Assembly (NCBI GenBank): GCA_021432655.1
Contig: MU271184.1
Span: 186,001 to 250,000, forward strand
Origin: Atractiella rhizophila
Lineage: Eukaryota
DNA length: 64,000 bases
Reading direction: 5' to 3'
The notes beneath the pieces are model-generated. The model made no database searches. It was not told the origin of the DNA and saw nothing but the letters and a program-made list of their open reading frames with translations. A program made the translations under genes and the position numbers. Below, in pieces: positions 26,432 to 63,198 of the stretch (position 1 is its first letter; every line of letters starts with the position of its first letter).

Positions 26432-27025
26432 AATCAGATGAGCCGCACGGGTTCTATCACCAGCAACCGGATGAAAAACATAAACCTCTGCGGATCAGGA
26501 AAATGCTGATGTGCTTCCTCCTTTTGTCCGTAAAAGCTGTTTATTTGTCGAAGGAAGGAAATCGCTCTTTGGGGAGAGTGAATAAACACGAACAAACACA
26601 GAAATGTAAGGTACTGCTGGCTGGTTGGCGGTTTCACGTGTTGAATGAACTGGGATCATCTCAAGGTTCCCAGGTCTCAAGTGGAGGTGGACGGATCGTC
26701 CGGAGCCTATAGATTTAGGTTCTGGACAGAGTATTGTCTCCCGTGTCACAGTGTATGTGACTGGTTTCATCGGGGTGGGCATTGATCAGATGGTGATCAG
26801 TACGTGTCTCAAAGTTCATCTACTACTAGTAAATGTGTAATATTACTATCCACGGCAATCAGCATCAATAATGTGGAGTGATAACCAACTTCACGACAGG
26901 TGTTCTAAGCGTGAAAATAAACCCGCCTCAGCAAGATCGTTAACGTGATAAAATGTATGTTCAACGGGGTCTGGCTGAACGTAGCAGCTTTGCACAATGT
27001 TGTCCGTGAGACCAAAGCTGAACCG

Positions 27026-27189
27026 TGTTGAACCTGAGGTTCATCAGAAAGACAGGAAGAGGAAAAAGATGAACCTCAGGTAATGCGAACGAGACTAAAC
27101 TACAGTAGCGGACGGAACAGTCAGACGCGGAATGCGTAAGATGAACGGGAAACCAAAAACGAAAAGAGAAAAACAACCAAGCTTCAACA
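27026..27189 (-). repeat. 3' LTR of Copia-1 (164 bp)
   Basis: Identical to the 5' LTR except for 4 extra bases (GAAA). Preceded on the minus strand by the polypurine tract GGAGTGGGAG (27190-27199). Confidence 0.97.
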
Positions 27190-27385
27190 CTCCCACTCCG
27201 TACGCTACAACAAATTGGGAGAAGGTGCAATGGAGAATAGGAATGTGGGATGGGTTGTGATGTAAGGGTGTGTGTGTTCAAATGGATGTGAATATGAAGA
27301 AAAAAGAAATGCTCTGTTACACAACTATTGTGAAGACTGAACGAAGAAGTGAGAGCGCACACGGATGAAAAGAACAGAGTGTCAA

Positions 27386-30300
27386 TTAAGAGAAAATGAT
27401 GCGAGTTCCAATATCGCGTACTCCCATAGCATGGATGCATTGGTGAAAGGAGTCCTTGGCAAGTGGTTTTGTGAGAGCGTCTGCAATCTGATGTCGCGTT
27501 GGCACATACCGTAGAATGATATTGCCTTTCTGGACGTTGTCTCTAACCATGTGGTAGCGAAGCAGAAATGGCTTGCTTTGTGCATGGTGGACTCCGTTGG
27601 TTGAGATCTTGATCGCCGCTTGATTGTCTTCGAAGACTGTCGTGCGGGGTATGTCTTCTCCTGGCGAGACGTTGTGAATGCTTTCAAGTGCTCCTAATTC
27701 TTCAAAAAAACCTCTTGTCCACAGCAGATCTGCAGTTGCTTCCGCAGCTGCACCATATTCTGCCTCTCCGGAAGACAGTGCCACGACGGTTTGAGGCTTC
27801 GATTTGAAAGTGATGGGTGCTCTGCTGAGCATGATGAGCCGTCCTTCTTGAGATTTGAGGGATGGAAGAAGGGAGGCAAAGGAGGCGTCAGAGTACGCAT
27901 GAAGGGGTCTGCGATCGTTCCCATTAAACAGCAGTCCTTTGTTTGAGGTTGCGCTGAGGTAGCGGAAAATTTGCTTGACTGCTTTGTAGTGTTCTGGGCC
28001 TGGGTTGGCTGCGAAACGCTGTACGTTGGAGAGAGCGAAGGTGATGTCCGGACGTGTGCAGATTGATAGCCAGTTCAAACATCCTGTGGCTTCTAGAAAT
28101 GACCATGGAGGTTTGTTGGCGAGGTCATCCTCAGACCAGACGCCATCAAATGGTTTAAGCTTTACCTTGGGATTCGCAGGGACACTCGCATAACTGTCCG
28201 TGAATCCAAATTTCTCCAAGATTGACAACGTATACAATCTTTGAGTCAGACTGATCGTGCGTCTTTCCCAGTCGCGTTTGACCTCCATTCCCAGGAACTT
28301 TCCAACTTCTCCGAGTGTTCGCATTGCGAATGATGTCCCTAGCTCTCTTTGAAGCGTTTTGACAACAACACGGTCTTTGCCTAGCAGCAGAGTGTCGTCA
28401 ACATAGACGACAAGGATGTATAGCCTGCCATGTACTGTTTTTGTGAAGACGCAGGAGTCAGACCATAAAGGGGTCCAACCCTTCGTTTGCAAGTCTGCCT
28501 TGAGAGTATCAAACCACAAACGGGCTGCTTCCAGTAGTCCATAGAGACCCTTCTTTAGCAGATAAACTTTTCCTTCAGTACCAGGCTTCTCTAGGCCAGG
28601 GGGTTGACGGATGTAGATTCGAGTTTTTGACATGTCGATGGGGGAGTTGAGGAAGGCAGTTTCATAGTCTGCTTGGTAGATGGATAGATCCTCACGAGCA
28701 GCGAGAGCAATGACGCCGCGGATGGTTTCGCTGTTGCTTACGAGAGCGAAGGTTGGGTCTCCAGTAGGGGTTTGAAGATCTCCTCTGACACAGATGCGTG
28801 CTTTGAGGCTTTCTAATTTTCCATTAATGTCGTATTTGTGTCGGAACGCCCACATGAGAGGTGTAGCTGTCTCTCCTTCGGGGAGATCTATGGGTTCGCC
28901 CTCAATCGTCTTGTTTTTGAACTGTTTCTCCCACTCGTTCTGACATGGCTGGAGCCATTCTGATCCTTCGCTACTTTTCAGTGCTTCTTTGAAGCTCCGT
29001 GGTTCTCGGAGAATCCAACCGTGGTCCTGAAGTGCGCGCGTGGAGAACATGTAGTCGATGGAGTCGCTGGGACGAGGAGGAGAGGATCCTTGGGAGCGTC
29101 GCTGACGTATAGCTTCTCGTATGTCCTTTTCGGAAAGTTCATCCACTTGGATAGCCATTGGAGCGCTGATGTTAGGTTCGTGTATTTCAGGCGAAATAAA
29201 GGCACTTTCCCGTTGCACGGGTCTTACGTCCACCACTACGTGCTCGGCCCCTATGCAACTGCCCGTTTTTAATCTCTCAGGAGCATCATGGCTCCCTTCA
29301 GTGCGCATACTGGTGGAGGCGAACCGTAGGATGTCTTTGTATTTTGGATCGACGACGTAGTCGTTGTTGAAGATGCGCTTATTGGGGATTCGTCTCCGTC
29401 CAGAACGTGGAGGGGGCGGAGGACCTTCGATTGAAGGGGAGGGGGCGAGAGGAGGAGGGATACCGTCACTTGCAGGCGTGAGTGTTAGCTCCATCGCTGT
29501 GTCAGGGTAATGGTGCTGATGCAGAGGAATATCACTTTCCTGAAAAGCGGGGCTTACGTCCACCCTCTCGTGTGAAGCGCCCTCGCAACTGCCCGTACCC
29601 AAATTATCTGTCTCTGCAACATTTCTTTCGCTTTCACCGAATGATGCTGGAATGGAGGGAGTTGGAGCTATTGTTTCGATGGAGTTAGGAGCAGGGGGTG
29701 CGACACGTATTCGTGAGTCGGGAAGGCCAGCGTCCAGAGGTGCGTTTTGAGGAAACTCGTCGATGTTATCTTCTGACCAGAAGGTATAGTCGTCTAGTCG
29801 GTCTGACCCAGTCCTTCCTTCAAAATAATTTTCGGCAAAGATAACATGGCGAGCACGAATGAGATGTCGCTTGACAGGATCCCAACAACGATGCGATTTG
29901 AACATTACGTCGGGTCCCAGATAAATACAGCGTACTGCTTTGTCCTCCCACTTTTTCCTGCGTTCCTCAGGAATCAATGCCCATGCCATGCATCCAAATG
30001 TTCGCAGATAGCCTACTGAGGGTTGGAGTCCTTCGAGAGTCGTCAGAGGTACTCTACCTTTTAGTGAAGTGTGAGGTGTGCGATTGTACACATGTCCGGC
30101 AAAGTAGAGAGCCTCAGCCCAGAACATTAGAGGGAGCTTTGCGTGATAAAGCATAGATTTGGCAAGGTTACGAAGGGTGCGGTGGATGCGTTCAGCGATT
30201 CCGTTCTCTTGATGACAGTAAGGTGTTGTTGCTTTCCATTCGACATTATTCGACTCGAACCATGACCTTAACAAGTGATTTACGAACTCTCCTCCACCAT

Positions 30301-31090
30301 CTACTTTCCATCTCTTCACGTTTCTTTGTGTTTTGGCCTGAAGGAAAGATCTGAAGCGTTCGAAGGAGAGCAGGACTGTGGCTTTTGACTTGTCAGGGAT
30401 GAATTGCTGATGAACAACTCTTGAACCGACATCAACGTGCACGATGGAGTACCAGGCACCACCCAAGGAAGAAACTTGCACAGGGCCAGTGAGATCAGAT
30501 ACTACAGACTCGCCTGGCAGTGTGGGCGGCAGCTCAGCGCTTTGTTTTGATGGAAACGATCCCCGATGCATTTTTCCCATAACACACGGCTCACAGACGA
30601 CCTCAAGTTCCTTCTCTTTCGTTTCTTTCACCTCCAAACCACCCACTAGCGACTTCGAAATAAGATCTTTGATCTTCTCAATCCCGACATGCGCCAGCCT
30701 GTTGTGCCAAGTCTTTAGATCGACGGCCTTCGAAACGGTATCGATGTGAGCACTCGCCTTTCTTGCTTCTCCCTTCAGTAGGAATAAACCCCCTTTCTCC
30801 TCTGCTACCCCTACTAGCCGCCCTTTCTGATTAAAGATAGAGCAGTTTCCATTCTCGAAGACTAACTTGAGGCGCTCGTGTGCCGGTAAGGAGAGGCTGA
30901 TAAGTTTCGAAACGCTGATTAGGGGACTCGTGAGGGAGGGTAGGTGGAGGACATTGTGCAGGGGTATGTCAGAGAGGGGCGTCCCATTTTCGCTGGAGGT
31001 GACGTAGACTGCGGACCCTTTCGTTGCAATTGAGATTTGTCTTCCATCCGCAACTTCAATGGATCCGTTATGGTCTTGACGGTTGGAGAG
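27386..31090 (-). CDS. pol: Copia-1 pol (protease C-part, GAG-pre-integrase, integrase, RT, RNase H)
   Basis: Within ORF 27386..31303: WHNRLAH..CEPC, SDLTGP, VDGGGEF, ENGIAER, LKARICVRG, YVDD, YSDAS, EAEY, ADALTK. Confidence 0.95.
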   Translation of the reverse strand, partial: LSNRQDHNGSIEVADGRQISIATKGSAVYVTSSENGTPLSDIPLHNVLHLPSLTSPLISVSKLISLSLPAHERLKLVFENGNCSIFNQKGRLVGVAEEKGGLFLLKGEARKASAHIDTVSKAVDLKTWHNRLAHVGIEKIKDLISKSLVGGLEVKETKEKELEVVCEPCVMGKMHRGSFPSKQSAELPPTLPGESVVSDLTGPVQVSSLGGAWYSIVHVDVGSRVVHQQFIPDKSKATVLLSFERFRSFLQAKTQRNVKRWKVDGGGEFVNHLLRSWFESNNVEWKATTPYCHQENGIAERIHRTLRNLAKSMLYHAKLPLMFWAEALYFAGHVYNRTPHTSLKGRVPLTTLEGLQPSVGYLRTFGCMAWALIPEERRKKWEDKAVRCIYLGPDVMFKSHRCWDPVKRHLIRARHVIFAENYFEGRTGSDRLDDYTFWSEDNIDEFPQNAPLDAGLPDSRIRVAPPAPNSIETIAPTPSIPASFGESERNVAETDNLGTGSCEGASHERVDVSPAFQESDIPLHQHHYPDTAMELTLTPASDGIPPPLAPSPSIEGPPPPPRSGRRRIPNKRIFNNDYVVDPKYKDILRFASTSMRTEGSHDAPERLKTGSCIGAEHVVVDVRPVQRESAFISPEIHEPNISAPMAIQVDELSEKDIREAIRQRRSQGSSPPRPSDSIDYMFSTRALQDHGWILREPRSFKEALKSSEGSEWLQPCQNEWEKQFKNKTIEGEPIDLPEGETATPLMWAFRHKYDINGKLESLKARICVRGDLQTPTGDPTFALVSNSETIRGVIALAAREDLSIYQADYETAFLNSPIDMSKTRIYIRQPPGLEKPGTEGKVYLLKKGLYGLLEAARLWFDTLKADLQTKGWTPLWSDSCVFTKTVHGRLYILVVYVDDTLLLGKDRVVVKTLQRELGTSFAMRTLGEVGKFLGMEVKRDWERRTISLTQRLYTLSILEKFGFTDSYASVPANPKVKLKPFDGVWSEDDLANKPPWSFLEATGCLNWLSICTRPDITFALSNVQRFAANPGPEHYKAVKQIFRYLSATSNKGLLFNGNDRRPLHAYSDASFASLLPSLKSQEGRLIMLSRAPITFKSKPQTVVALSSGEAEYGAAAEATADLLWTRGFFEELGALESIHNVSPGEDIPRTTVFEDNQAAIKISTNGVHHAQSKPFLLRYHMVRDNVQKGNIILRYVPTRHQIADALTKPLAKDSFHQCIHAMGVRDIGTRIIFS

Positions 31091-32438
31091 GGAAGACATG
31101 AGAGGTACATCCAGAGTCAATGATGGCAATAGCGGTCTTGTCAAAAGAGAGATTTGCCTTACTGGCTTCGACTTCTTCAACGAGCCGGACTTGGTCTTGA
31201 ATTGCAAAATGAGAGGACGATTGCACATTGGAAGCAAAGTCGGAGCTGAAGTCAGATGTATTGAGGACCAGGTTGACTTGGTCAAGAGTGGAAGAGGTAT
31301 CAATGGATGGTGATGTCAGTTCTTTGGCGCTATCCTTTCTCCTTGGATTGACAGCTCCGTCTTTGAATCGATATCCAGGAGGAGCAAGAGTTCGATTTCC
31401 TTCAAGTTCCCAACAGCGATCAGAGGTGTGAGAGCGAAGACTGCAGTGAGGACACGGGGGGAAACAGTTGATGGTGGAAGAAGGGCGATTCGTCCCACTC
31501 CTCCTCGACTTGTCTCGATCTCCCGTACTCCCACTTTTTCCACTCCCTCTTGCTGGCGTTACCGACCTAGTAATCAGCGCTTGTTCCTGCGCCTTCTGCA
31601 CCTCACTGAGGCCCTCCTCCAACATTATCGTGTTGATAGTGTTGGAGATCCACTCGGGAGTGAAATCGATAAGGGTGGCCTGGGCAGATTTCATTGCCTG
31701 TAAAGCTGAGAAGTACGGCTTCATTTTGTCGCGGAGGGAGTCTGACAGGGTGGCTTGGAGGTGAGCCGAGAAGATGAGTGACTTCCAGGTTGCGGTCGTG
31801 AACTTATCGTCCCCAACGTATTTGACGAAATCAGTAAGATTCTTCTCCAGGACCGCCATGTGTTCAGTCCAGTGTTGGGGAGTACTTCCATTGAAATGAG
31901 TTCGTGCAAATGTACTCCAAGCAGTGACAGCATAAAGGTGGTTGGCAGCGTCATACTCCTTTTTCAGCCAGTCCCACGCTTCTTTCGCTTTCTCCTTAAG
32001 GTCGTTCGCCTTGATCCTTGCTTTCATTCCATCAGAGAGGGATTCGTAGAGGAGCGTGGAGGCTTGGAGGTTTTTGTTCTTCCACGCAATGGAATGTTGG
32101 TCGAAGATATACAAAGCGGCACCGTAACGAGATTCGAGAGGTTCCTTCTCCTCTCCAGATATGACTAGCCAAAGTTGTTGGCTACGCAACGTTTCATATG
32201 CGTCTTCCCTCCATGCTCGATAGTTGGGACCTTCTAGCACGGTGGGGATTCGGCGAGTTAAGAAAGAGTTTGATGGAGGAGTAGGTAGGGCATCCATCGT
32301 GATGAACGGGATGTCTGCTGGTTCTGGAGGAGGGCTCCGATTGAGTGGAGGTGCTGTGGATGGTTCAGGAGTTGCGATGCCGTGATCTGATGGATCCTGG
32401 GGTAGAGATGGTTCGTCTGATCTTGGTGATCGAGACAT
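31068..32438 (-). CDS. gag: Copia-1 gag plus protease active site
   Basis: 456-aa ORF with LEGPNYRAW, zinc knuckle CPHCSLRSHTSDRC and protease motif IIDSGCTSH just before the stop. Confidence 0.92.
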   Translation of the reverse strand: MSRSPRSDEPSLPQDPSDHGIATPEPSTAPPLNRSPPPEPADIPFITMDALPTPPSNSFLTRRIPTVLEGPNYRAWREDAYETLRSQQLWLVISGEEKEPLESRYGAALYIFDQHSIAWKNKNLQASTLLYESLSDGMKARIKANDLKEKAKEAWDWLKKEYDAANHLYAVTAWSTFARTHFNGSTPQHWTEHMAVLEKNLTDFVKYVGDDKFTTATWKSLIFSAHLQATLSDSLRDKMKPYFSALQAMKSAQATLIDFTPEWISNTINTIMLEEGLSEVQKAQEQALITRSVTPARGSGKSGSTGDRDKSRRSGTNRPSSTINCFPPCPHCSLRSHTSDRCWELEGNRTLAPPGYRFKDGAVNPRRKDSAKELTSPSIDTSSTLDQVNLVLNTSDFSSDFASNVQSSSHFAIQDQVRLVEEVEASKANLSFDKTAIAIIDSGCTSHVFPLQPSRP

Positions 32439-32580
32439 GAAACCTCGCTCAAAGGCGTCCGAGTTGAGTTGGTTTGTTGATTAGCACGTGTCGCGTTTGT
32501 TTGAGAGTGTTTACGACTATTGATGGAAAGGGAGGAAGGCTTGGGGAAAAAGGCGGACGCTTATTCGGTAGGGATCATTT

Positions 32581-32592
32581 GGGCTCATAACC
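32581..32592 (-). promoter_or_regulatory. Primer binding site GGTTATGAGCCC (internal tRNAi-Met fragment type)
   Basis: Directly follows the 5' LTR. Same type as the Ty5 and Drosophila copia PBS, which pair with the anticodon-arm region of initiator tRNA. Confidence 0.85.
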
Positions 32593-32752
32593 TGTTGAAC
32601 CTGAGGTTCATCAGAAAGACAGGAAGAGGAAAAAGATGAACCTCAGGTAATGCGAACGAGACTAAACTACAGTAGCGGACGGAACAGTCAGACGCGGAAT
32701 GCGTAAGATGAACGGCCAAAAACGAAAAGAGAAAAACAACCAAGCTTCAACA
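32593..32752 (-). repeat. 5' LTR of Copia-1 (160 bp)
   Basis: TG...CA ends, adjacent PBS, and TSD AACCG. Confidence 0.97.
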
Positions 32753-35433
32753 AACCGATCTCCGCCATGTACAAACGGCATGGTCAAAGCTCCCAAAGGC
32801 GGAAGGTGTTTGACATGATGCTTAGATTTGTCTGCCAACGAGGTGATTAGAGTGTGCTGAATGAGTAGAAGAAAACTTTATAAGATGACAGCAAGGGGGG
32901 AAGAAGTATGTAAAGGGCAAGAAGTGAAGCACGAATAGTTTTGGGAAAAGAAAAGGGACTGCCGCAGGGAACGGTATAAAGTGGTCAAAATGGTTGGGCT
33001 ACTTACCTTATGTTGGCTCGAACGGAGTAGAGTTTTAGCCCACTCCTGCTCGAGCCATATTAGTATGGGCTTCCTCATGCTTTTTCTTTTTGAATTTCAG
33101 TATTCTCTCTGTGGAGGGTGTGTGGAATGAGAATCGTTTCGTGGCTCAGATGAATTTCCAGAGAAGGGGGAGGGCTTCGGGTGCAGAAAGGACCGATGCA
33201 TTGCTCGTTAGGCTAATACCCGATTTCGCTAGTTGGCTCTTGAGATGGTTACCATCCAAGTGTACTCGCGGAAGACAATGATCTGAAACTCCTTCCCTTC
33301 AACGCAACAAGAAAATAATCGAAAAATCTGTGCAAATGAAATTGTGCCATCCTTATTCTGCAGAATAGCGTTGTTGTATCGCGGGGCCTTCTGCCAATTA
33401 GGGTGGAATCGAAGGTAATCTTCGTATATCCTTTGATCGACAAACGAAGTGAATGGAGAGCGGAAGAGGGTGAAGTCTTGAATCTGAATACCCGAAGTTA
33501 GCCAGCAAAAGCATGAGGATGATGTAAGGAAGAAAGCCCTAGAATTGTCAATCTAAGGCAATCGCTCCTGGCGCACCCGTGTTGGAGCTGAAGGATCTAG
33601 AGTTGGAGTTCGAATTCAGTGGACAACTTGTCAAAGTAAGTCTGAACATGAAAGGTCCTTGACTCGCCACAGAAACCCGAGCTTTCAATGGGGCCTTGCC
33701 TTTTGTGTGGAATGGCTCGCTCGTTCTAGCAACTGCTCCCGTGAGCAAGTTTTGCTGTTATGATGCGGCGGCCAATGGCTTGAAGTTGCATCATTTCGAA
33801 CGCACGTTGAGCCATCTAACACAGGATCGTGCCACAGGTCAGCATTCTGCAAAATGCTAAACATGAATGTTTGAATGGCTGCTTACTGATAGCTCCGTCT
33901 CCCCCGCTATGTTGCTATGAAGCCACTTGAGCAATGATGTGCTCTTTCACTGGACGGTGGGATTGTTCGCCATGGGCTGTCATTTGATGATCCAAGGTTC
34001 CACCCTCAGCGATGAGGTCAACAAAGTGCTGGGGTAGATGTCCTTTTGAGAACTTTGTAGACATTCCGAAATGTTCGCTCAGAGTCTGTCATGTCAGCTA
34101 AACAAAAAGTATGGTGTGAGAAGAAGGACAAGACAAACCGTCAAAGCCCTTTCAACAGCTGTGAGCTTCTCTTGTCGAAGCACAAGGAATCTGTCTTCGT
34201 CTTGAACGTGCGTGCATCTTTACAATCACCTCGAAAGCTATCAGGTCTTGTAGGGCAGGAACAGCTTCTTGCTCAAGCTCAGCTGGAAGAATCCCAATCA
34301 TGCAAACGATTAAAGACCGTAGTAAAACCTTGATATCCATACCAGCACAGTAGAGAGATTATGTGCCTTCATTGCATCTTGAATCTCCATGCAGGTAAAA
34401 CTTTCTAAGTTTGTTAGGCCACTTTTAGCGGACTGGCCAAACATTTCAGCTTTCAAGTTATGACAAAGCCTCAAGCAGGCAACCACACACCTTCTCAGGC
34501 CGAATGGAAGACCGGCTCGTTAGTTCCTTTGCCGCTGCGACTGTCCCGCTTTTTGTCTCTTCATATCGAAAAAGGTCACATCGAACCTGTTTCTGACTGC
34601 GTTAAAAACTGGTGTGAGAGGTTGTGAAGCTCTGCTTCGGGAGCAAGGCAGATTGCACAGCGAAATTCTGACCCAATGCCGAGCAGCAATAGGAGGGTGT
34701 ATCTGGAAACCGGTAAGTAGATGTTTTATCAAAGTAAAGCAATTCTCACAACTCAGCCATATCAGCCTGCAGCATGAATATACGCGGGAATATCAACTTG
34801 TTGAAGCAATGGCCGACTTGCACCTTGAACCCTAGGTGTTCATATCGACGAATGCCCTTCAATACAATACTAATGACTTTGTGGTATACCGAACACTTGT
34901 ACAGCCGGAACTTTTTGTCCTTCTTTTGCTTATCCGTGCCAACAATCTAAATATTTCCTGGTCAGTACCTCAGAGGAGCAAGGATAACTTGAATCTTGCT
35001 TACTTCAGGTTGAAATCCAATGAGTTGGCACCCTCATTTACTGTCACTACTCCTTTCTCGAAGAGGAACATTTGCAAGCCACATATACATGGGATGCACA
35101 GTTTTCTGTCCAAACTTGACGGCACTTGTTCCATCTGTATAAAAGATGATTGCGCCGATACACCCATTGGATTGAGAAGACAATCCTGGAGTACTAGTAA
35201 GTATATACTTGATGTGAATGCGAGAGAATATGTGAACCTGATATCTCCACCAGCGCCTAGTAGTCCACAGCTCATCATAAGTTCTCACATTGCGACATGG
35301 AACGTCCTCAGTCTGTTTGAACTTCTTGACTGGGTAGAACTGCATCGACTCTCGTATAGTATCGTCGCAGATCACCTCTTTCATGATCTCGATAGGATCC
35401 ATATATAGACATGATGCTTGATAGTCTTGCTCT

Positions 35434-38400
35434 CTAAGAGAGTGCCATGTATTCAGCTTCTGTAGACGAGATTGCTACCGATTTCTGAGCAGTCGAAAAA
35501 CAAGAGACCATCCCGCCCGCCAGATTGAAATGGCAACCAGATATCGACCGTCTACTGTCGATGTCAGCCGCATGATCCGCATCGCGCCAGCCCACCAGTT
35601 CATTCGATGCACCCTTCCCATCCCATCCCAAAACCCTTCCGGTTGTCCCTTTCAAATATCGGTAAATCCTCGTTACTGCCTTCCAATGTCCCATCCCCGG
35701 GTTTACCATATACCTACTCACTCGATTTACGGCATATAGAATGTCTGGCCGCGTGTTGACTGCCAGATACATCAACGCACCAACTGCCTCCGAGAACGGT
35801 ATCCCTCCCATTTCCGCCTTCTCCTGTTCAGTCTTCGGTGACATATCGTTTGTCAACTTGTCCTTCGGATCGCAAGGTGTGCTGACAACAGAATGGTCCT
35901 GAAAACCGTATTTCGCAATACATCTCTCGATGTAGTCGATTGATCCATGGTTATACGCCGATTCTCGCGATCCTGGGTAATCCGCATCCCAAGGTACTCT
36001 CCCGCTTCGCCGTGTGTAACTCTCTTGAAGACCGCCACCATTTTCTTCATCAAGCTGTCTCGCAAATCTGTCGACGTCGATGCAATGAGTCCATCATCCA
36101 CGTGTAAGAGTACTTTTACCAGTCCCCTATGATCCTGTCTAACGTACATTCCGTGATCAGCCTGTGATTTCACGAATCCCTCCTCCTTCATCATCGTGCT
36201 GTATTCTTCGTTCCAACTCTTCCCCGCCTGTCGCAACCCATAGAGACTCTTCTTTACTCGGTAAACCCAGTCAGGATGTTCGGGATCAACAAGGCCCGGT
36301 GGCTGCTGGACTTATATCTCTTCCTCTAATTCTCCATGTAAGAATGCATTTCCAACGTCGAACTGTCCCAGGGTCCATCCGTTTATGGCGGCAAGCGCAA
36401 GGACAACTCTGATGGTGGACATGCGTACCGTCGGAGCGTAGGTTTCCGTAAAATCTCGACCCTCCACCTGCTTATTTCCAAGGGCAACTAGTCGCGCCTT
36501 ATATTTCAGAAATTCGCCCCCCAACTTCCTCTTCTTGCTTAACACCCACTTCAGTGGAATAGGAACGACTCTGTCCGGTTTCGGCTGTAGCGGACCCAAA
36601 ACCCCCATCCCTGTGATTTGTCCCCACTCCCCTCCGCATGCTCCAGTCCACCCCTCCCTTTCTTCGCCCATCATTGCCTTCGAAAACGTAGGTGTATCGT
36701 CATTCCCGTCCCAATTTCCGTCCACCGCGAATGCCCCACCTCCAACGTTCCCGTCCGTTTGTGCCTCATCAAAAATCGCTGATGCCTGGACCAGATTTTC
36801 AACGACCGTCCTTGCCTCCCGCACTTTCTTCGACTCCTGTTCTCTGATCCCAGGCCTCAGGACAACATATGCACTTGGTAAGTCCTGTATACCCGAGTTC
36901 ATCTTCTTATAATCTCGTCGCAGGGTCTTCCTAGATGATCGGCGAACATCTGGTCTAGGTGTGGTTGCACGTCCCATATCCCCCGCCGTATCGTCGTGTT
37001 CCTCACGTATTCTGTCCCCCACAGGTGCTACTTCAGTCTGGTCTTCCGGAAGGCCCCCCATACCGTGCGCGAAATCATGGACACCCCAATTCCTCCCCCA
37101 GAATTCTTCTATCCCAGCCTCTAAAGCCGCTCTAGCCTCCTCGCGTCTCGTTCCCTTCCTTTCTCGATAGAAGACCCCTTCGAACCATTCGACATCAGCC
37201 GATTCAAATACTACCCTCTTCTCCGCATCCCACAATCTCCATCCTGCCACGTCTTCACAATATCCCAGCATGTATCCTTCCCTTCCCCTAGGTTGAAGCT
37301 TCGATTCTTGACGCTCCTTTGGGATGGTAGCAACTCCCAATGTCCCAAAAGCAACAAGGTGATCCATGGACGGTAATTTTCCGTATAACGCCTCGTATGG
37401 GCTCCTGGCATCCGTGAGTGCCTTATGTGGTACCCTCAAGTATAGATAAACTGATGTTGCCATAGCGTCCCCCCAGAAACTGACAGGAAAACCGCTCTGT
37501 AGTAATAACGCTCTGGTCATGTTCAGCAATGTCAACCACGGACGCTCCATCATGCCCATATGGTTGTGTTTATAGGCAATCAATGTCTCATGCTGAATTC
37601 CTTCTGTCCTCGTAAAGGTCGCCAGAGTCATTCCCATGTACTCTGCTGCCCTAACGGTTCGTATCTTCTTGATTTTAACTCCATGTTCCCGTTCAAATCG
37701 GCTGATCCATTCCATTAGCACGATGGGTGCGGATACCTTCGAACGAAGCGGAATCCACCATATGGAACGTGTGCTCTCCTCCAGAATGCTCATGCCATAA
37801 CGTTCCCCGTTCCTCATCCCAACTCGAGCAGGTCCCCATATGTCACTCAAAATTCTTTCACCCAGAAGGCTCTCTGACATCTGTTGCTTCGGCCTGTTTG
37901 TCTTCGTAGTCGACTTAGACATAGCACACGTCAAGCACTTTGGAATCCCTTCATTTGATTTCGATTTCGTTAACGTCACATTTCCAAGTTTCCCCTTTTG
38001 CAACATATCCTTTATCTTTCCAAAACTCAGATGTCCCAGTCGTTCATGCAGGGTATGCAATTCAACTGATTTCGCAATCGAGGACGTAGACGAAAAGCAG
38101 ACATGAGCGTCGAACGTTGTGTGAGATGGGATGTAACTTGCCTTTACGGCGACGTTCTTTTCCCCAATAACCGCAAATCCTATCGATCTCCCATCGTCGA
38201 TCCCATAGTATATCGTTTCGCGGTCGTTCGTGAATCGCATCCCATTGCGCATAAGCTGCATGGCAGAGATAAGATTGATCCCCAGTTGTGGTAGATAGAG
38301 GACATCTTCGAAGACGACAATGAATCTGGTTCCATCCGTGTTTTCCATGACTGCATGGATTTCTCCAACAATCTTCGTGGTACCCGAACTATCAAAGACT

Positions 38401-40229
38401 CCTCGCAGGACGACCGGTTCCTCTATTTCTCGAACATTGTGAAGTAAGTTGAAGGAGGAAACCATGTGATATGTGGCACCCGTGTCATGTATCATCTTCA
38501 ATGTTGCCAGCGCAGTTCGCGGTGGAAGAATGTCCTCATGCCAATCGATTACTGGGAACTTCGAATCCAGAATGGGTCCGTCGTCTCTTGCCTTCCCAGC
38601 AAACGCTCCGTTCCATACACACCACACCCCATCCATTCCCGAAGGCATCTCCCAGTTCTGTACCCCAAGAGCGCCTCCCATGACATCTCTGTCATATTCT
38701 TCATATTCTATTCCTTCAGACGAATATCTGCATTCTTGGTTGAAGGCTGGATGTTCGGGAGGGAGAGGATTGTCTTTGCCATAACCAGGGACATAGATCG
38801 GGAAGGTGGATAATGCAGCAGGATTGTCGGGAAGGTGTCGTCCCCGCTGTTCAAACGCCTCCTGTACATAGGCAGGAACCCAAGCAAGGTCATTAGGTCC
38901 GAACACAACTGATCCATCTCCAGTTCCATCAGCTCTCCCGTCGTCGATGTGCACGTTAACGGCTCCCACAATGTTCTTTGTTCCGTCATCGTCCGCCGTC
39001 GTATTCAATCGAGAGACAGCCAGGCCACTGACGTTCCATTGAGTGATACCCGTATAATATCTCCCTACTTCTGCCGCTCTTGCTCTCATTCGGGTGTTGA
39101 CATCCGCCCCCTTCAGTCTACACGTTTCTCCACGATGCCCCTCCTGAAAACAGACATGACATCTCCCATTCAACATCAACTTTCCGCCAGCTGTAAATCC
39201 ACCATTCCAAACTCTTCCAGGAATCTCTTGCAATTGATCAACACGTGTTGGATTTCCTCCATTCCTCAGAGGTAGCGCATATATCATCCTCTCGGACGAT
39301 AGGGGAACATTTCGGTATGGTCTTAGTGTGGGCATAAGTTGCTGTGACTTCGGACGGAATACACGTTGAGGTGGCGTCATTGTCGTTGAACCTCTCCTCG
39401 TCGGCGTGCCTGGAATGAAGTTATGCGTCCTGTTAGCAGTAGGTGTCCGTGGGCTCTGGACGGAATATGCGCTGGAGGGTTCGTGAGTCGGATAATCGAG
39501 GTATGTCCCGTTGCTAGGAGGTTGCCCCATCTCGATCCTCTTTAAGTCCATGTCCCACTGCTTGATACAGAAATCCAGGATTTCGTCTAACATGGACTCA
39601 AACTTCTTATCCCTTAACGTCGGACTGGTGTAATCCCTCGCCCATTTCGGATCATTCTCTACCTTCTCCATCAACCCAGTCCATGGCGGGATTGATTGAG
39701 CCTTCAGGAGGTCAAGGAAGAATGAATTCGGGACTTTGTCTTCGGATCTAGCATTGCTAACAGCTCGTTTCTTGGTTCGCCACTTATTCCACCATTCCTT
39801 CTGGTCTTCTCCCGCAACTTGCCTCATATTGACGAAATTGAGGAGGTCGAATATTTCCGATTGCTTCCGCAAAGCCCCATATTGCGTCTTCAGGACATTG
39901 ATCCTCTCACGACATGTCCCAAGTTTCGCCATCGAATCCCAATCACTCTCCGTCACGAGAGCCTTCAGGATAGTATTGGCAGCCGCATCATTTGAGATCC
40001 ATTTCTGATAGGTGGTCATCTTAGAGGTAAACGAGGTTGCATTCTCCTTCAAACCGCCGATCGCGAAAGTAGGAAGTTCTGGTTTAGGCGTACCTCCACT
40101 CCCTTCCTCAAGAACAACCTCCCCAAAACCACTCCCTACCACCAAGCGAATAAACTCTTCATACCAAGATTTCCAGTTCCCTGCCTCCAGCTTTCTACCA
40201 CTCCAAAGACTCATCAAGTTTTGCGCCAT
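35434..40229 (-). pseudogene. Copia-2 gag-pol polyprotein, disrupted
   Basis: 1305-aa ORF with CHVCFQEGHRGETC, HDTGATYHM, HERLGH..CLTC, SDIWGP and YKARLVALG. In-frame TAA at 36312 (EEEI*VQQP), HVDD in 35853-36236, frameshift near 35935. Second integrase Asp apparently lost (RTVRAAEY). Confidence 0.93.
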
Positions 40230-40418
40230 TGTCGCGGCCGCCGCCTTCTATTTCTCGTGGTCCAAGATGAGATCCAGGGTCTCACTGGATGCGTTTGATT
40301 TGGTTTCCTGCTCAGGAAAAGGGGTTGGAGCCGGCGATGGGGGCAGAGATATTAACTTGTCAACGTTCATTCAACAGCGTTTTTGAAAATTTTTTTCCCC
40401 AACCTGCTCTCGCTACCA

Positions 40419-40592
40419 TGTGGATCTGCTCATCCCTGGTGGTAAGCACCTAGCATGACTATTATCCGAGACTCCTACCTGCTCATCCCTGGTGGTAAGC
40501 ACCTAGGGAGAGCAGGTCATTGACCGTTCGTACGTACACCCGTGTGCGGTGATCGCACCACACTGGATACCTCCAACAAGGACAGATCCACA
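40419..40592 (-). repeat. 5' LTR of Copia-2 (174 bp) with internal 28-bp direct repeat
   Basis: 10-bp inverted ends TGTGGATCTG / CAGATCCACA, adjacent PBS, and CTGCTCATCCCTGGTGGTAAGCACCTAG at 40426-40453 and 40479-40506. Confidence 0.9.
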
Positions 40593-40988
40593 AACCCTAA
40601 GCAAAGGCGGAGGAAAGGACTGGTGCAGTTGTGCAAGTCCTTTCCTCCTTCTTCCATCTGCCCATCCGCCACGCTTTCCTTCCTCATATTCTCATCCACC
40701 TAGCTTTCTCCGACATCCTCTATTCTCTGATCTGTGAGTGTGCTTCAGCAGCACGGCGAAAAGGTGTGCCTCTCTTGTTATGTCTCATTCCTTTCCTCTT
40801 TGCATGAATGTTGTACTAACAATTATCTCCGAGTATTTTCTGTTTCCGCTTGCTTCTCACCTTCCGTCCACCAACTTCCATGGCCACTGCTCTCTTGTGC
40901 CCCGCCCCTCCTCATCGCATCCACTCTGTCCCACCCTTCACGCCTTCTCCCAGCAGAGTACCAGCTCATTGGACCTTATTCAATCGTC

Positions 40989-43900
40989 ATGTCTGCGCTT
41001 TCCTCCAACATCTTCGATCCCCCTGTCGTGAAGGCACTGTGCAAACAGGTGCTAGAGACCCACACTCGACAGAAGGCTGGGAATAAGAAGGGAAACTGGC
41101 TTGTGGACTGGGAAACAATGTGGACAATTCAATCGGTCAATGATACAGTGGAGAAATGGAAGAAAAATAAAAGTATTGTGGGAGAAGAGGGCAACTATTC
41201 TTTGCTGCCCAAGTGTTAGAATATAGGAAAATTGTTAACCGAGTCCTTGACAGAGAGGTATGCTATTCTGTACTTATTTTAAAGTCTCTGGGTTACAAGT
41301 AAAATGTAGATTAACCAAGGAACCATTCCCACTGGCTTTCCCCTCTATGGACCGCTTTTCATTCCTCCCACTGCCGATTATGACCATTTACGGCGAAGAA
41401 ACGTTTCTGACTGTCCGGAAAATTTCTCGTTGAACCTGTTCTTGTCCTAACTCCTGAATACTTTCCTGGCTATAATATGGAGAAATGTCCGGTCAAAGGC
41501 TGCATGGCGAAAGTTGAAAAGCAGGGGCTGGCGCCAACTGGTTATCGCTCAGTTTATGGGCTATCATGCAATTTGAAAGCAATTGGTTGTTATCTCAAAT
41601 TTCAGACTCATGGCAAATGGAGCACAACCTCTCCTAACTTTTGGAGGAACTTTCAGCCATATGAATTAGGTATCGGCGTATTTTTTAAAATGATTTAATA
41701 AACACATGACTAAGTTGCTTGCATAGATGGAATACCTTACTTCCGGGAGTCATCGGCTATCACTCAAGATCTGTTCAACTTTATTACAGAATTACGGCCA
41801 AAGACTGATGTTGGCAAACTGGGAGAAGCGATTCAGCGTGCGTGACTACTGTCTTTGCTTAAAAAAAACCAACTTACACACTCTTTGTGTTTTGCAGAGC
41901 TACATTCGGAGCATGTCCAGCAGATTAAACGGGTTTGGCAACAGTACGCTATTGAAGAACAGATTCGTCACAAATGGCCGTCCGGCTCGTTCAAGCCAAC
42001 CTTGAAGCAGTTCCCAGGTGTTCTATCCAGAGCTGCCGATCCAACAATAAAAGCCGATGCGATTAAGTCCTCTCCATCATCTGGCCTCATCAAGACAATC
42101 TACGAACACTGGATAGAGTGTGAGCCCAGAAAGCAACATGTATTTGAAGACCCTTACCGGTATGTATTTTGGCTTACCTTGGCCCTCTATCCTAATAAAC
42201 CACCAGGTCTTTCGTTAGGCCTTGATGCAACCCTCAAGGTCGCCAAGAAGGCAAACATTTACACTACCATGAAGGAGACTGGTGGTCATCAAAAAGTACA
42301 AGTTACAAATATTTTTGGTGGAGGATTGTTGACGATGGTAAATGAGGACCGAGAACTTGTGGGATACACAAGTTATAAAGTTGCTGTCATCTGTAAATTC
42401 AAGGCCTAATGATAACAATCCAGGAATTTCTTGTTGGAAACTCACCGCTCGAGATGGGTCCACCACTTCAAGAGTTTGCGCAACGTGCACGGCTCCTTGG
42501 AGTCGACTTTGAAGGTAGTGGGCAGGCATGTGTTGACCTCTGCTGTCAACATAGGAACAGTATCCTTCTCTAGGTGCCCGAACTCTGGATTGGTCAGGAT
42601 CGAGCTCATCTTGAAATGCATGTCTTTGAAACAATTCCTCATATCAATCCGGCACGAGCAGATTTCGTTGTGGCATTTCGAGACGCAATCTTGAAGAAGA
42701 AGGCAGACTTGCGCGGTGGGGTTTCTGAGTATTATTCAGTTGAAGAAAGCTTGGAGCGGCTTACGAAAGTTGAAGACAAGTTCAAGAAGAATCCTGATTT
42801 TTGGATCAAGTGCTGTGCCACATTCGAGCTTCAAAAAGGTCACATTGCGAAGGGATGCCTTATTCCAAAGCATCAGCAACTCCCGTTTATGACATCAAAT
42901 AATGAAAACTGGCATGTTGCAGCTGGCGAGCCATTTCGTGGATCGGCTTCTTCTCTTACAACTGTTCTGAGTGTCCTTCCCGATATCTTCTTACGCAAAA
43001 ACCTCCTTGTCAAAATTAAGAACCGCTCTCAGCCAGCTGACTCACCATCATGAGCATTTCGGAAGAAGGTTATTGAGGCTGGTACCCACCACATCTTTCT
43101 TGTGGATTGGAATCTTCGCCTGGAAGACATCTTATACTCTTCAAGCCAGCCTAAACTGCTGGACGTCTTTTCGAAGCACGAGTTTGGATTGGTCAAGCGT
43201 GAAAAGCAGTATGTTTTCTGTATATGCTACTGGGAGTAGTACATTTGTTGCTATTCCATGAGTTTAGATTTACAGGAGTTGACCTAGATCGCTATAAAGC
43301 AAAGCGAAAGGAGCTCCTCCAAACTCTCAAACCAGATGATATCGAACACCCCGAAGTGATTGTTATGGCTGTTATGAATGGAACGGTTGTCATGAATGGT
43401 GAGCTTCCTGTGGACTCTGATGTTGAAATGGAGGTGTTTCCGAAGGCTGTAAGTCTTCTCTTTCCCAGTCTTCTCAACATGAGAATATATTCATATTGAC
43501 ATGTTATAGAAACCTGAGAACACTCCTTTACAACATTCTGCGATCAGTTCATCTTGCTTGCCAGAAAAGCGCATGGCGACCCAATTGGATAGTGAGGATG
43601 ATGCCACTACTACGCTCACCATCTCCTCCAAACGCCCTCATCTAAATCGAGAACTTTTGGAGCCAGATATCAAGCCACCTCCGCTACCTTCTTTTTGGAA
43701 CTTTATAAAATCGAACCAGTCCCCATTTTCCACAAGTATGGATGTGGAAGCACAACCACCACCAGTTCCTCTGCCTACGAATGTCTCCCAATCTCAAACC
43801 TCATAGACCTTTACTTCAGCAACTGGCACTTCGTTTGCAGATTATCAGGAGAAGAATAAAATTCAAATGTACTCTGATGCCTTCTGGAAGCTTGCAGCCT

Positions 43901-44635
43901 GCCGACTCCAGTTCAAAGCTACTTCTTCAATGACAGAGAAGCAGCTGAAGTTGTTTGCTGAGAACTTTAATAACCCCTAGCTTATCTTGAGCCCTGTATA
44001 TTACCATATAGAAAAGGGTGTTCCGACCAACAAAATCATTGGTGACGGTTTGGTAGTCAAAAATAGTTTATTTACAATCGAGAAGGATGTTGCTAGTCAC
44101 ATTCAGAGAGTAGCCAGAGGAGACTGTGAGTTTGAATGCTTTTATTGACAAGAAAGGAATTTACTAATAGTGTTGAGTAGCCATCAAACCATTCTGGAAA
44201 CTACAAACGACACTCCCTCCACCAGTGAAAGTGACATACATGAAGCCAACAAAGAAGGGCAACCTTGGAGCTGTAAAGACTTGTGGTTGATGCAAGAAGC
44301 AAAAGGATGGATATGGTGAGAAGAATACAAACAACCACAAGCGCGATGTCTGTGACGACAACTTTATGCATTGGTCCAAAGTTCCGTACCCACTGCCCAA
44401 GACCAACTTACGCAATGTCCCACTCTGCAAGAATATGTTGGGGAAGTGGAGCACAGACGAGAATGCGGTAAAGAAGTTTTTCACGGATATCAAGGATGGG
44501 AAAGTGCCAGATGTTGATCAATCGGTGGAGATGGTCAACATGCGAGTTTTTATGGCAATGACATGGGTAGAGGAAAAGATGGACTGGGTTTTGACAAAAG
44601 AAAGGTTGCATATTGAAGTGGGGAAGAGAAAGTAG
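40989..44635 (+). pseudogene. Multi-exon putative DDE transposase of an unassigned family (DUF6729-like N-terminus)
   Basis: Exons give GPLFIPP, EKCPVKGC..GYRSVYGL..IGCYLK, LGLDATLKVAKKA, IGQDRAHL (DxxH), HIAKGCL, TSNNENWH and a C-terminal CxxC..H..C. GT-AG introns; some stops and frameshifts. Partly duplicated at 53-56 kb. Confidence 0.6.
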
Positions 44636-44829
44636 TGCTGCACTTAGTGAGTAGTCAGATGCAAATGGATATCTTTTGTGATTTTCAGTCTGGGACAAAT
44701 AATGTACTAGCCTCCACTTTTGAGATTTTTATAAAGATCACGTCAACTATTCTAAAGCAAAGGCAAATTTTGAGCTTTTATTTGATCAATTACAGCTGCA
44801 GTTGCGAGAGGACTGAATGCACTGTTGCG

Positions 44830-45400
44830 GAGTCAAACAATGTAAATATAATGTGAGTTGATGCTCTGCTTTGTTAATATCCCCTCAATGCTAATAATCC
44901 TTATACATCGTGATAGCTAGCTCTCAGGCCGCGCATTCGATGTACTCACGCATGAGATACAATGGATAATGGCGAAGTAATACAGAATCATATGTTTGAC
45001 ATATATAGGGTGTGTATTTTTTCCTTCACTTTTTTTGATGTTTGCTCACTCTTATTACGCATTATACATAGTAATATCTAGCCCCCAAGCCATCGCTCCT
45101 CGCTCTCACGTCTAAAAAACAATGGATAATAGCGAAGCAATGAGGAATTGCGTTTTTTGATGTATATGAAGTGCGTGTTTTGTCCTCCGCTTTTTTTAAT
45201 GTTCACTCGTTCCCAATATACATTATACGTCGTTGAAGCTACATCTTAGGACTCCCATTTGCGCTACTCACGTCTAAAATACGATAGATAATGGCGAAGC
45301 AATGTGGAATTGCATTTTTGATGTATATGAGGTGTGTGTTTTTGTCCTCAGCTTTGTAATGTTCACTCATCGTTATTACATGTTATACAAGGCGACAACA
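44830..45400. repeat. ~161-bp diverged tandem repeat, about 3.5 copies
   Basis: AATGGATAATGGCGAAG-like core at 44961, 45121 and 45283. Confidence 0.8.
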
Positions 45401-53255: not shown

Positions 53256-53592
53256 TGCAGAGTAACAGCTTATTGGAACGTAATCAATCATCGTGTCTGC
53301 ACTCTCCTCCAACATCTTCAATCCCTCTGTTGTAAAGGCACTGTGCAAACAGGTGCTAGAGACCTATACTTGGAAGAAGGCTGGGAATAAGAAGGGAAAC
53401 TGGCTTGTGGACTGGGAAACAATGTGGACAAGTCAATCGGTCAATGATACAGTGGAGAAATGGAAGAAATAAAGTATACGGGAGAAGAGGGGCAACTATT
53501 CTTTGCTGCCCAAGTTTTAGAATATAGAAAATTGTTAACCGAGCCTTGACAGAGGGGTATGCTATTCTGTACTGATTTTAAAGTCTCCGGGT
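53256..53592 (+). repeat. Diverged copy of ~40953-41294 (transposase 5' part)
   Basis: Shared runs such as GAAGGCTGGGAATAAGAAGGGAAACTGGCTTGTGGACTGGGAAACAATGTGGACAA. Confidence 0.92.
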
Positions 53593-53899
53593 TTTATGGT
53601 GAGACTTAAGCAACCTGGGGTGACGGTCTCAAAGAAGCTTTGGCTAGGGGCTTCAAAGTTCAAGTAGCTGTTGCTCCAGTGAGGACTTCTGGGATGACAT
53701 CACAAGAGTACAGAGAGGAGAAGCAACGGTCATCTAAATGCCAGCTCATGACTGAGGAGGAAAGCTGGGGCGTTCAATAAGTGCTACTTCGCCATTGAGT
53801 ATTTGCACATGTTTTGCCCTTTTGCTTTTCACTTTTCTCTGTCTGAACAAACCGTAAACAGCTTCCAAGTATGCCCAAAGACCATCAATTCTATCCGGA

Positions 53900-55130
53900 A
53901 ATTAGCTAGGTTGTCTGAACCATGTAGAAACAACTTGCGCTTTAATATCAGCCTCATCCAAGGTAAAGTTGACAGCTGTGGCTAGCTCACACATGCTTTC
54001 AACCTTTGTCGGCCCAAAGATTGGAGCTGTAACTCCAGGCTTGTACAACAACTACGTGATTGCAATTTACCTTTCCATCAGCCAAAATTCCATCTGGGTC
54101 GATGACGCCATACCCACGCCATGGACACCCTGTTCTTCCTTGTCAACTGTTCTACCGTGCTCACAATCTTCTTATCACTTTCCCCAGTAGCATCTTTCAC
54201 AATAAGGTTGAGGAACTTATCCGACTTTCCTCTTTCCATGGTTTTGTTTTGAGCCCAAGGTCGCATGAGGAGACCTCGACCTACGTCCCAGAGCGCCATG
54301 TGCATCGTTTCATCTCACAGAGGGATGGAGGTGAGGCTGTGATCAACATACCCAGTGGACTTCAAGGAGTATAGCCAACTCCGAACTCTTGAGAGTGGGT
54401 ATCATCTCCCTTTCTTCCTCAAGATAGTTAGCTGAATAATGGTTCTGCACGCTGATGAAAGGGGTAAGGTTTTTCAATTAGCATAGTTCTGTATGGCATG
54501 GAACTCATAGGCATGATAGGAAGACTGATGGATTCATACTCAGACATGTAGATCGTGAAAAGCGAGCTGGGTGAAAGTCATAAAATGCACCATCCCAATG
54601 TATCACAACCATCCTTTCTGGACCACATCATGCAAAACTTTGCATTATTTCTTTAATTGGCTTTTCATAGTCAAACCTATGGCCTTTAACACAAAAAGTC
54701 TTTAGTTCTTCCAAGATGGTGTCACGGATAGATGGACATTGCAGCAAGTCGATGTATTCCAGCTTCAAAAGCTTCAAGGATGCTTGCACACTGGCAAAAT
54801 ATGCTTTCGGCTCGAACCATGTTGATTATACCCAAAAATTGGTTCATGAAATAGAGAAAGCAAGAGAACGAAAGGATGTGTACTTGACATGGCCCGAATC
54901 GTCGGGGTTTCCAGGACAACTTGCCATAATTCTTCCCCAGCTCGTCATGAACTGTAGAGTATAACTGTTCCTCAATCAAAAATGGTTTGGAAAACGGAAG
55001 AGTGAGAAGAACCTTCGTCATGACCACGATGGTCTCCCTCGGTATCTTCAACTGCTCAATCATGTTCCCGGAATAACTTCCGAGAGACCAGAAGAATAGA
55101 CTGATCCCATGACCGTTGAGCTGCATCCCC
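53900..55130 (-). pseudogene. Aldo-keto reductase (aryl-alcohol dehydrogenase-like) pseudogene
   Basis: LKIPRETIVVMTKV, NQHGSSRKHI/FASVQASLKLLKLEYIDLLQC, LHDVVQKGWL*YIGM, AYEFHAIQNYA, LTPFISVQNHYS..EEREMIPTLK, GLLMRPW, KPGVTAPIFGPTK. Introns retained; stops and frameshifts present. Confidence 0.88.
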
Positions 55131-55169
55131 GAATTAAAAATCAAACAAACCATTGGTGGTACTAGAAAG

Positions 55170-56196
55170 TGAAGTCACCACTATCTTCTATTTGGAACTT
55201 CATAAAATGGAACCAGTCTCCATCTTCTACAAATATTGATGTGGAAGTACAACCACCGCCAGTTCCTCTGCCCACATATGTCTCCCAATCTCGTACGTCA
55301 CATACCTTTACTTCAGCAACAGGCACTTCGTTTGCAGGTTATCAGGAGAAGAGTATAATTCAAATGTACTCTGATGCCTTCTGGAAGTTTGCAACCTGCT
55401 AACTCCAGTTCAAAGCTACTTCTTCAATGACAGAGAAGCAGCTGAAGTTGTTTGCTGAGAACTTTAATAACCCCTAGCTTATCTTGAGCCCTGCATATTA
55501 CCATATAGAAAAGGGTGTTCTGAACAACAAAATCATTCGTGATGGTTTGGTGCTCAAAAACAGTTTATTGGCAATCGAGAAGTAGATTGCTAGTCACATT
55601 CCCAGAGTAGCCAGAGGAGACTGTGAGTTTGAATGCTTTCATTGACAAGAAAAGGAATTTACTAACAATGTGTTGAGCAGCAATCAAACCATTCTGGAAA
55701 CTACAAACGACACTCCCTCTGCGAGTGAAAGTGACATACACAAAGCCAACAAAGAAGGGCAAACTTGGAGCTGTAAAGACTTGTGGTTGATGCAAGAAGC
55801 AAAAGGATGGCTATGGTGAGAAGAATACAAACAATTACAAGCGGGACCTCTGTGACGACAACTTTCCGCATTGGTCCAAGGTTCTGTACCCACTGCCCAA
55901 GACCAACTTACACAATGTCCCACTCTGCATGAATATGTTGGGGAAGTGGAGCATAGACGAGATTGTGGTAAAGAAGTTTTTCACGTATATCAAGGATGGC
56001 AAAGTGCCAGATGTCGATCGACCAGTAGAGATATCAACATGCGAGTTTTTTTGGCAATGACATGGGTAGAGGAAAAGATGGACTGGGTTTTGACAAAACA
56101 AAGGTTGCATACTGAAGTGGGGAAGAGAAAGTAGTGCTGCACTTAGTGAGTAGTCAGATACAAATGGCTATCTTTTGTGATTTCAGTCTGGGACAT
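55170..56196 (+). repeat. Diverged copy of ~43672-44697 (transposase 3' part)
   Basis: About 1 kb collinear match, e.g. CTTCTTCAATGACAGAGAAGCAGCTGAAGTTGTTTGCTGAGAACTTTAATAACCCCTAG in both. Both end TTCAGTCTGGGACA. Confidence 0.95.
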
Positions 56197-62600: not shown

Positions 62601-62838
62601 AAGCGGGGGGTGCGGTAGCAAGTCGGGCAAGTATTCAAGTATAAAATTAGTTAGAATATATTATTATTATTAGTTTATTCTTAATGGTGCGTGGAGCCTC
62701 TCCATTTGGCGGTTGTTTTGAATGGCCATCGTTCCCACATCTTCGCGGGCGTTAATTTTGGTGTGGTTGTTCCGTCCAGCGGAGAGTACCCGAGGCGTGC
62801 CCACTTTCAACAGACCCCACATTTCGCGAAGTCGTCTC

Positions 62839-63072
62839 TGTTGAACCTGAGGTTCATCAGAAAGACAGGAAGAGGAAAAGATGAGTATTGCATGTGAGCG
62901 TGTGATAGGATGCTTACCTGAGGTTCATCAGAAAGACAGGAAGAGGAAAAGATGAACCTCAGGTAATGCGAACGAGACTAAACTACAGTAGCGGACGGAA
63001 CAGTCAGACGCGGAATGCGTAAGATGAACGGGAAACCAAAAACGAAAAGAGAAAAACAACCAAGCTTCAACA
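62839..63072 (-). mobile_element. Solo LTR of the Copia-1 family, long (234 bp) form
   Basis: Same sequence as the Copia-1 LTRs plus 71 bp. 5-bp TSD GTCTC at 62834-62838 and 63073-63077. Confidence 0.97.
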
Positions 63073-63198
63073 GTCTCCATGCCTTCCCGCTTCCTAAAAC
63101 GAATGTGGTAGCAAGACAGCGAATCTTGATTATTCTTAGGGGAACGAAGAGGACTCCGTCCAGCTCCATTCTTTGTTCTGGAATTCCGCTCTTCCTAT

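Follow-up and report, generated by a model that had tools for sequence, protein, structure and literature searches.

An intron that is spliced from the genomic RNA of a retrotransposon is expected to be lost in the next copy, and Ty1/copia and Ty3/gypsy LTRs pass through an R-mediated first-strand transfer during replication. Penelope-like elements (Drosophila virilis Penelope; Chlamys-3_cRei) resemble the elements described below in having a terminal-repeat 5′-UTR intron that is retained after retrotransposition; the accessible part of that report mentions no exon copy inside the intron and calls the significance of its retention unknown (bioRxiv 10.1101/2021.04.23.441226). Unlike the present elements, they are not LTR elements and use neither tRNA priming nor first-strand transfer. 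In foamy viruses, according to the available text of PMC3694450, an LTR donor folds differently in the 5′ and 3′ LTRs with U3 present at the 3′ end only, which is similar to what we propose here, but that text concerns a donor and a poly(A) signal and describes neither a whole LTR intron nor a repeat that rebuilds one. Split-intron retroviral vectors are also alike in that reverse transcription assembles a functional intron, the donor being copied from the 3′ to the 5′ LTR; as presented in the accessible portion of PMC3182074, however, they are artificial and one-way and their spliced product loses the packaging signal, whereas here the intron would renew every cycle. Introners, including Copia-derived ones, likewise link LTR elements to spliceosomal introns, but in the sections available of PMC12130899 a whole element or solo LTR is the intron of a host gene, whereas here the intron would lie inside the LTR. 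A literature search that covered few subscription journals found no paper on a natural LTR intron containing a copy of its exon.

A candidate for such an intron lies in the 5′ LTR of a Copia element, Copia-2 (family F1), within a 64-kb stretch of the Atractiella rhizophila genome that was analysed as a whole (the window). The features of this LTR and its flank are as follows.

40419..40578, minus strand: Copia-2 5′ LTR, 160 bp, with a boundary common to other copies
40532..40537, minus strand: upstream (U3-side) splice donor GTACGT, marked by an RNA contig of run X8 that exits the LTR at 40538 and by copy L028, which is without 40537-40479
40507..40517, minus strand: 5′ arm of a predicted hairpin, not duplicated, pairing with the end of repeat 1 and the donor GT
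40479..40506, minus strand: repeat 1, 28 bp, found by repeat search; proposed first exon and R-like segment
40426..40478, minus strand: putative 53-nt intron, GTAGGA to CAG, read from the sequence; its acceptor is used in one RNA contig and its donor is putative
40454..40478, minus strand: unique 25-nt part of the intron, including the donor
40426..40453, minus strand: repeat 2, 28 bp, found by repeat search, with the branch-like motif and the acceptor; variants cluster at its left edge, and it is the proposed landing site of strong-stop DNA
40446-40442, minus strand: branch-like CTTAC
40419..40425, minus strand: 7-nt LTR tail (U5-like)
40406..40418, minus strand: primer binding site (PBS), with 115 genome matches at one mismatch or fewer, versus 17 for a control pattern

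The two 28-bp repeats (40426-40453 and 40479-40506; repeat family D15) are identical and have a period of 53. Read on the minus strand, both have CAG as their last three bases; after repeat 1 comes GTAGGA, and after repeat 2 come 7 nt up to the LTR end and then the PBS. The first-pass annotation had described these perfect repeats, the 53-nt unit from GTAGGA to CAG (40426-40478) with its CTTAC motif, and an acceptor 7 nt from the LTR end in Copia-2 and 8 nt in a second family, Copia-1; all of these, including both tails, were found. The PBS differs between the two families, as it had also said, that of Copia-2 being presumably of the initiator-Met tRNA type. Its LTR length did not hold. A 174-bp LTR with a 121-bp unit-less form would put the LTR start 14 nt inside the flank. 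Because every copy with a left end starts at 40578, the LTR is 160 bp long, and the unit-less form is therefore 107 bp.

The 53-nt unit matches the pattern expected of a spliceosomal intron, with a predicted GT donor, branch-like motif and AG acceptor and a host-like size. Host introns seen in RNA measure 46-107 nt, a range that includes 53 nt, and have donors such as GTAGGT, GTATCC and GTTCGT. As a control for chance, near-tandem repeat pairs (score at least 20, period 40-89, spacer at least 12) were collected. Only two occur in the 64-kb window, and both have the AG-then-GT layout. The same control on 306 kb of loci from other organisms gave the layout in 2 of 19 pairs, one in LTR L229 and one in L217, which turned out to be a multi-copy array.

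RNA evidence came from contigs assembled from four of eight listed runs (X1, X2, X3 and X8). The kind of run X8 is unrecorded; we read it as RNA because nine GT-AG or GC-AG introns appear in the Copia-2 stretch. One X8 contig exits the LTR at 40538, just before GTACGT, and resumes at the base after the 40426 acceptor. It can be assigned to copy L015 by a variant and a flank that no other copy has, and the genomic sequence of L015 includes the full 112-nt stretch. This single contig, in which the joint is visible as a 30-letter loose end, shows that the predicted CAG at 40426 acts as an acceptor, and it represents a 3′-LTR read-through transcript that skips the GTAGGA donor. An earlier CAG inside repeat 2 (40438-40436), raised before as a possible acceptor, is not the one used by this contig. 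No joint at the GTAGGA donor was found among the listed joints; such a joint is hidden in contigs by the repeat and would look the same as a unit-less genomic copy. Its absence neither supports nor refutes splicing at this donor, because the model set out below predicts that it is invisible in short contigs. The LTR is without contig cover in X1, X2 and X3. We also considered an X8 contig end at 40451, the predicted start-equivalent base, as evidence for a transcription start and set it aside, as a T/G variant at 40452 would equally account for the break.

The element downstream of this LTR has the following features.

36312..40229, minus strand: Copia gag-pol ORF with protease, integrase-associated domains and the start of RT, broken inside RT and cut off near 35436
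38066..38141, minus strand: 76-nt GC-AG intron in sense RNA, between protease and integrase, with a joint in runs X1 and X8
35662..37718, plus strand: antisense RNA over Copia-2 pol with eight short introns, with joints in runs X1, X2, X3 and X8

The Ty1/copia order of protease, integrase and RT (RVT_2) is present in the window ORF and in copy L133. L133 also has the TG...CA ends, two LTRs and PBS of the family; the window copy has a 5′ LTR only, and no Copia-2 3′ LTR was found within the 64 kb. None of the Penelope-like traits looked for (telomerase-related RT, GIY-YIG endonuclease, pseudo-LTRs) was found, and Copia-2 has integrase-associated domains and RVT_2. The best-matching relative of the family's protein is a Rhodotorula toruloides protein with 33% identity, which together with host introns of 46-107 nt points to a fungal and probably basidiomycete host. 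The host elements are thus like ordinary Ty1/copia elements in domains and their order, and the LTR repeat would act as R; they differ in that R would occur twice per LTR, as an exon and within an intron.

Splicing of the 38066-38141 intron shifts the frame and would yield a Gag-protease product, and Drosophila copia makes such a product from a spliced RNA. The antisense introns (seven GT-AG and one GC-AG) are seen in up to four runs. This RNA is probably non-coding, because three of its seven internal exons are without a stop-free frame in the window copy, and it is possibly linked to silencing. Elsewhere in the window, a full-length Copia-1 at 27025-32759 has the unit in neither LTR, and a solo Copia-1 LTR at 62838-63075 carries a 71-nt unit. 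An ORF at 59069-59815 matches COX1 and GIY-YIG and probably represents inserted mitochondrial DNA that includes a group I intron. A degenerate tandem repeat of about 161 bp occupies 44870-45390, and duplicated segments (40953-44684 and 53257-56183; spacing about 11.5-12.3 kb) are 80-97% identical.

The layout of a repeat ending in AG, then GT, a short spacer, the repeat again and the LTR end recurs in 12 Copia families and one Gypsy family. Sixty PBS-anchored loci were read, 30 of the 115 matches of one PBS pattern and 30 of the 48 matches of another. The layout is present in 31, with a tail of 6-34 nt after repeat 2; 14 are unit-less members of layout families, 13, falling in three families, are layout-free, and two are truncated. 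Among 20 loci chosen from 89 RT-RNase H matches, six, all of one Gypsy-type family, have the layout and one is the unit-less form of that family. The 12 Copia families make up four lineages that are only 23-36% identical to one another in integrase. Copia-1 and Copia-2, previously called unrelated, are indeed far apart (25-26%). Sequences are unlike between lineages, but in all of them the repeat has AG as its last bases and a donor-like hexamer directly after it (GTAGGA, GTATGT, GTACGT, GTAGGG, GTAAGC, GTAGGT, GTGAGT, GTCTGT or GTTAGT). This comparison across 13 families, together with the host-like size and the acceptor use in one RNA contig, makes the intron reading of the first-pass annotation well supported, although the listed joints include none at GTAGGA.

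Layout-free Copia families and Copias from metagenomes are interspersed among the layout lineages in trees whose deep nodes are weakly supported (FastTree, midpoint-rooted; the labels L283, the pol of another element, and L285 and L290, both mixed, were ignored). The shared layout had been attributed to deep conservation or convergence. Because a Gypsy family has it and two Copia families of the same A. rhizophila genome do not, convergence within the host lineage appears more likely than a single ancient origin. In metagenome contigs, the layout was seen at one (L229) of the 120 PBS loci among the matches listed, and at none of the 14 loci with a Copia-like protein downstream among the matches listed. 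Viral contigs gave 11 PBS matches, with no Copia element and no layout. The LTR module is real, widespread in the ordinary Copia and Gypsy elements of this genome, and apparently unpublished.

Some loci met in this survey have other structures. L065 has an F2 intron and tail after a foreign exon that ends in CAG and is not repeat 1, beside an assembly gap, and L292, a Gypsy-type LTR, has two intron-like segments, of which the second is bordered by a repeat of just 10 nt. L069, L072, L085 and L088 represent a TRIM-like element with LTRs of about 80 bp, the same PBS and no module. Three of them (L069, L072 and L085) had been candidates for tRNA genes and are actually short-LTR elements, and in L088 the TRIM-like inner part is joined to an F5-type LTR.

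A search of the genome (51 Mb, 1998 contigs) yielded 32 Copia-2 matches, 30 of which were extracted as loci. By hand count, 24 sites have a readable right end; some share flanks and may be alleles. The other loci are four fragments and two repeats of counted sites. One unit is present at 16 sites, two units at two (L012 and L013) and none at four (107 bp). The remaining sites are L017, which has one unit and a 68-bp duplication restarting at 40533, and L028, in which the gap runs exactly from the GTACGT donor to the AG of repeat 1. L028 looks like a reverse-transcribed splice product, and a 3-nt microhomology would also permit a DNA route. GT and AG are intact in all unit-bearing Copia-2 copies, as the intron reading expects, but the family is young and their retention therefore says little.

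Unit-less LTRs of the kind sought earlier as a sign of splicing do exist, at 107 rather than 121 bp, but they are not diagnostic. Among 25 loci examined, 14 elements have both LTRs readable, with the unit in both in seven, in neither in three and in one only in four (L138, L123, L275 and L134). L035/L038 is a discordant pair with an intact target-site duplication. Because 4 of 14 pairs are discordant, the unit must also be lost between the repeats at the DNA level or in assembly, and this rules out unit-less LTRs as proof of splicing. The three pairs without the unit in either LTR are expected from loss during replication. Since the unit is readily lost, its retention by most copies in 13 families speaks for selection or renewal. 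At L051, L096 and L102, extra partial repeats of 11-26 nt follow the last repeat and end at the same AG; they may be mis-transfers of short strong-stop DNA.

We favour, with a probability of about 0.6, a real spliceosomal intron that is rebuilt in each replication cycle via strong-stop transfer, and we infer the following cycle. In the 5′ LTR, the transcription start would coincide with the left edge of repeat 1; the arm would be absent from the RNA, and the intron would be spliced. In the 3′ LTR, the arm would be transcribed and would fold on repeat 1 and the donor junction, and this copy of the intron would be retained. Minus-strand strong-stop DNA, consisting of the tail and repeat 1 from the spliced 5′ end, would then anneal to the open repeat 2 at the RNA 3′ end. 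Its extension would copy the intron, repeat 1 and U3, such that the new LTR would regain the intron and repeat 1 would overwrite repeat 2. Landing of strong-stop DNA on repeat 1 would give a unit-less LTR, and landing of an unspliced 5′ end on repeat 2 would give two units. The likely gain for the element would be an intron close to the promoter, on which mRNA accumulation in intron-rich basidiomycetes depends, and U1 might in addition protect the RNA from premature polyadenylation.

The predicted hairpin of the Copia-2 arm and repeat 1 (-24.7 kcal/mol, z -4.7) reaches over the donor GT. In 13 of 14 loci the arm and repeat 1 fold with z from -2.5 to -9.9, the remaining locus being mis-delimited by an indel, and the predicted fold of spacer and repeat 2 never has z below -2.1 in the 14 loci. 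In all 13 loci compared, predicted base pairing over the final 12 nt is higher for repeat 1 than for repeat 2 (mean unpaired 0.08 versus 0.50). Furthermore, the two repeats vary together, in that subfamily and private alleles occur in both copies of one LTR. Private alleles are found in both repeats of two of five F11 copies, and the Gypsy alleles of repeat 1/repeat 2 (n=44) include T/T 31 times, C/C 6 times, T/C twice and a double change in both once. Tallies of unit-less forms from the same allele count included false matches and were left out. On its right the repeat always stops at the splice junction, and the left edge of repeat 2 varies: among 30 Gypsy copies taken from 439 candidates for their similarity, the adjoining base on that side is A in 17, T in 10 and C in 3. 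Rewriting of repeat 2 from the spliced 5′ end is the simplest account of this fixed right edge, the ragged left edge close to where transcription is expected to start, the co-varying repeats, the hairpin specific to repeat 1 and the forms with zero, one or two units. In line with the donor masking that the model requires in the 3′ LTR, the 3′-LTR transcript of run X8 uses the acceptor and bypasses GTAGGA.

A G lies left of repeat 2 in F1, F3, F4, F7, F8, F9 and F11, and another base in F2, F5, F6 and F10. Reverse transcription can add an extra base derived from the cap, and we considered this origin for the G; it is suggestive only, as the G also forms a branch-like CTGAT in some families.

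Several observations count against the rebuilding model. The four discordant LTR pairs imply loss or gain outside it, or assembly error, and L028 implies that the AG of repeat 1 is not always masked. Two Copia families of the genome manage without the module. Predicted masking of the donor by U3 is small, in 10 of 13 loci, and nil in Copia-2 (0.39 versus 0.40), and no TATA match was found for the Copia-2 family in the 13 loci scanned. In addition, one Copia-2 minor allele is shared between the repeats versus 13 confined to a single repeat, in a crude right-anchored count on a young family. The restart of the L017 duplication at 40533 fits a start upstream of the arm.

This last point and the missing Copia-2 TATA match favour a different reading, in which the intron is real, transcription starts upstream at the hairpin base (TAR-like), and the intron survives by premature partial strong-stop transfer to repeat 2 or by packaging of unspliced RNA only. 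The partial repeats at L051, L096 and L102 resemble the short strong-stop transfers that it involves. TATA boxes, matched in only 3 of 13 loci, start 32, 36-38 and 40 nt before the repeat, a spacing that counts for the rebuilding model, being close to the TATA position of -40 to -35 given for Cryptococcus in the accessible text of bioRxiv 10.1101/2023.07.18.549460. With a start at the hairpin base, the TATA box of F11 and Gypsy would sit about 15-21 nt away, nearer than the Cryptococcus distances, and the repeats would not be kept alike merely by packaging unspliced RNA. We consider this reading unlikely.

Improbable as well is a donor that serves mainly as a U1-binding polyadenylation switch of the foamy-virus type, with splicing rare and repeat 2 kept by template switching or conversion. 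Foamy viruses block 5′ polyadenylation by U1 at the LTR donor, with a different fold at the 3′ LTR (PMC3694450, available text). The upstream arm overlaps part of the donor in most families, and in F7 and F8 it covers donor positions +1 to +4, with matching changes in arm and donor. Such a switch leaves unexplained that repeat 2 stops exactly at AG in all the families, that the unit is as long as a host intron and that the acceptor is used; it is compatible with the rebuilding model, and both can coexist. A simple tandem repeat at the LTR end that grows and shrinks by DNA slippage, its resemblance to splice signals being chance or a by-product, would explain the zero-, one- and two-unit forms and the DNA-level change evident in discordant pairs such as L035/L038, but it is very improbable. 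Slippage does not recreate a unique spacer that has been lost, 13 families of unlike sequence share the AG-then-GT edge, and the unit is kept in most copies despite frequent loss.

The rebuilding of a spliced LTR intron by strong-stop transfer is a plausible mechanism whose key splice is predicted from sequence and which is directly testable. In Cryptococcus, removal of introns greatly lowers the mRNA level of most genes tested (PMC3744415, accessible part). LTR elements in such fungi face a conflict, because introns boost mRNA yet splicing should lose them. On balance, we lean towards the view that Copia and Gypsy elements in intron-dependent fungi repeatedly evolved a self-regenerating intron, in which R would be split into an exon and an intronic copy, a U3 hairpin would steer transfer to the intronic copy, and the LTR would be spliced yet inherited with its intron. 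The layout suggests a design for retro-vectors that keep their introns and, if the model is true, would mark fungal LTR transcription starts from sequence alone. It is found in a single genome in both superfamilies of LTR elements and gives a specific route, open to experiment, by which the intron conflict could be escaped.
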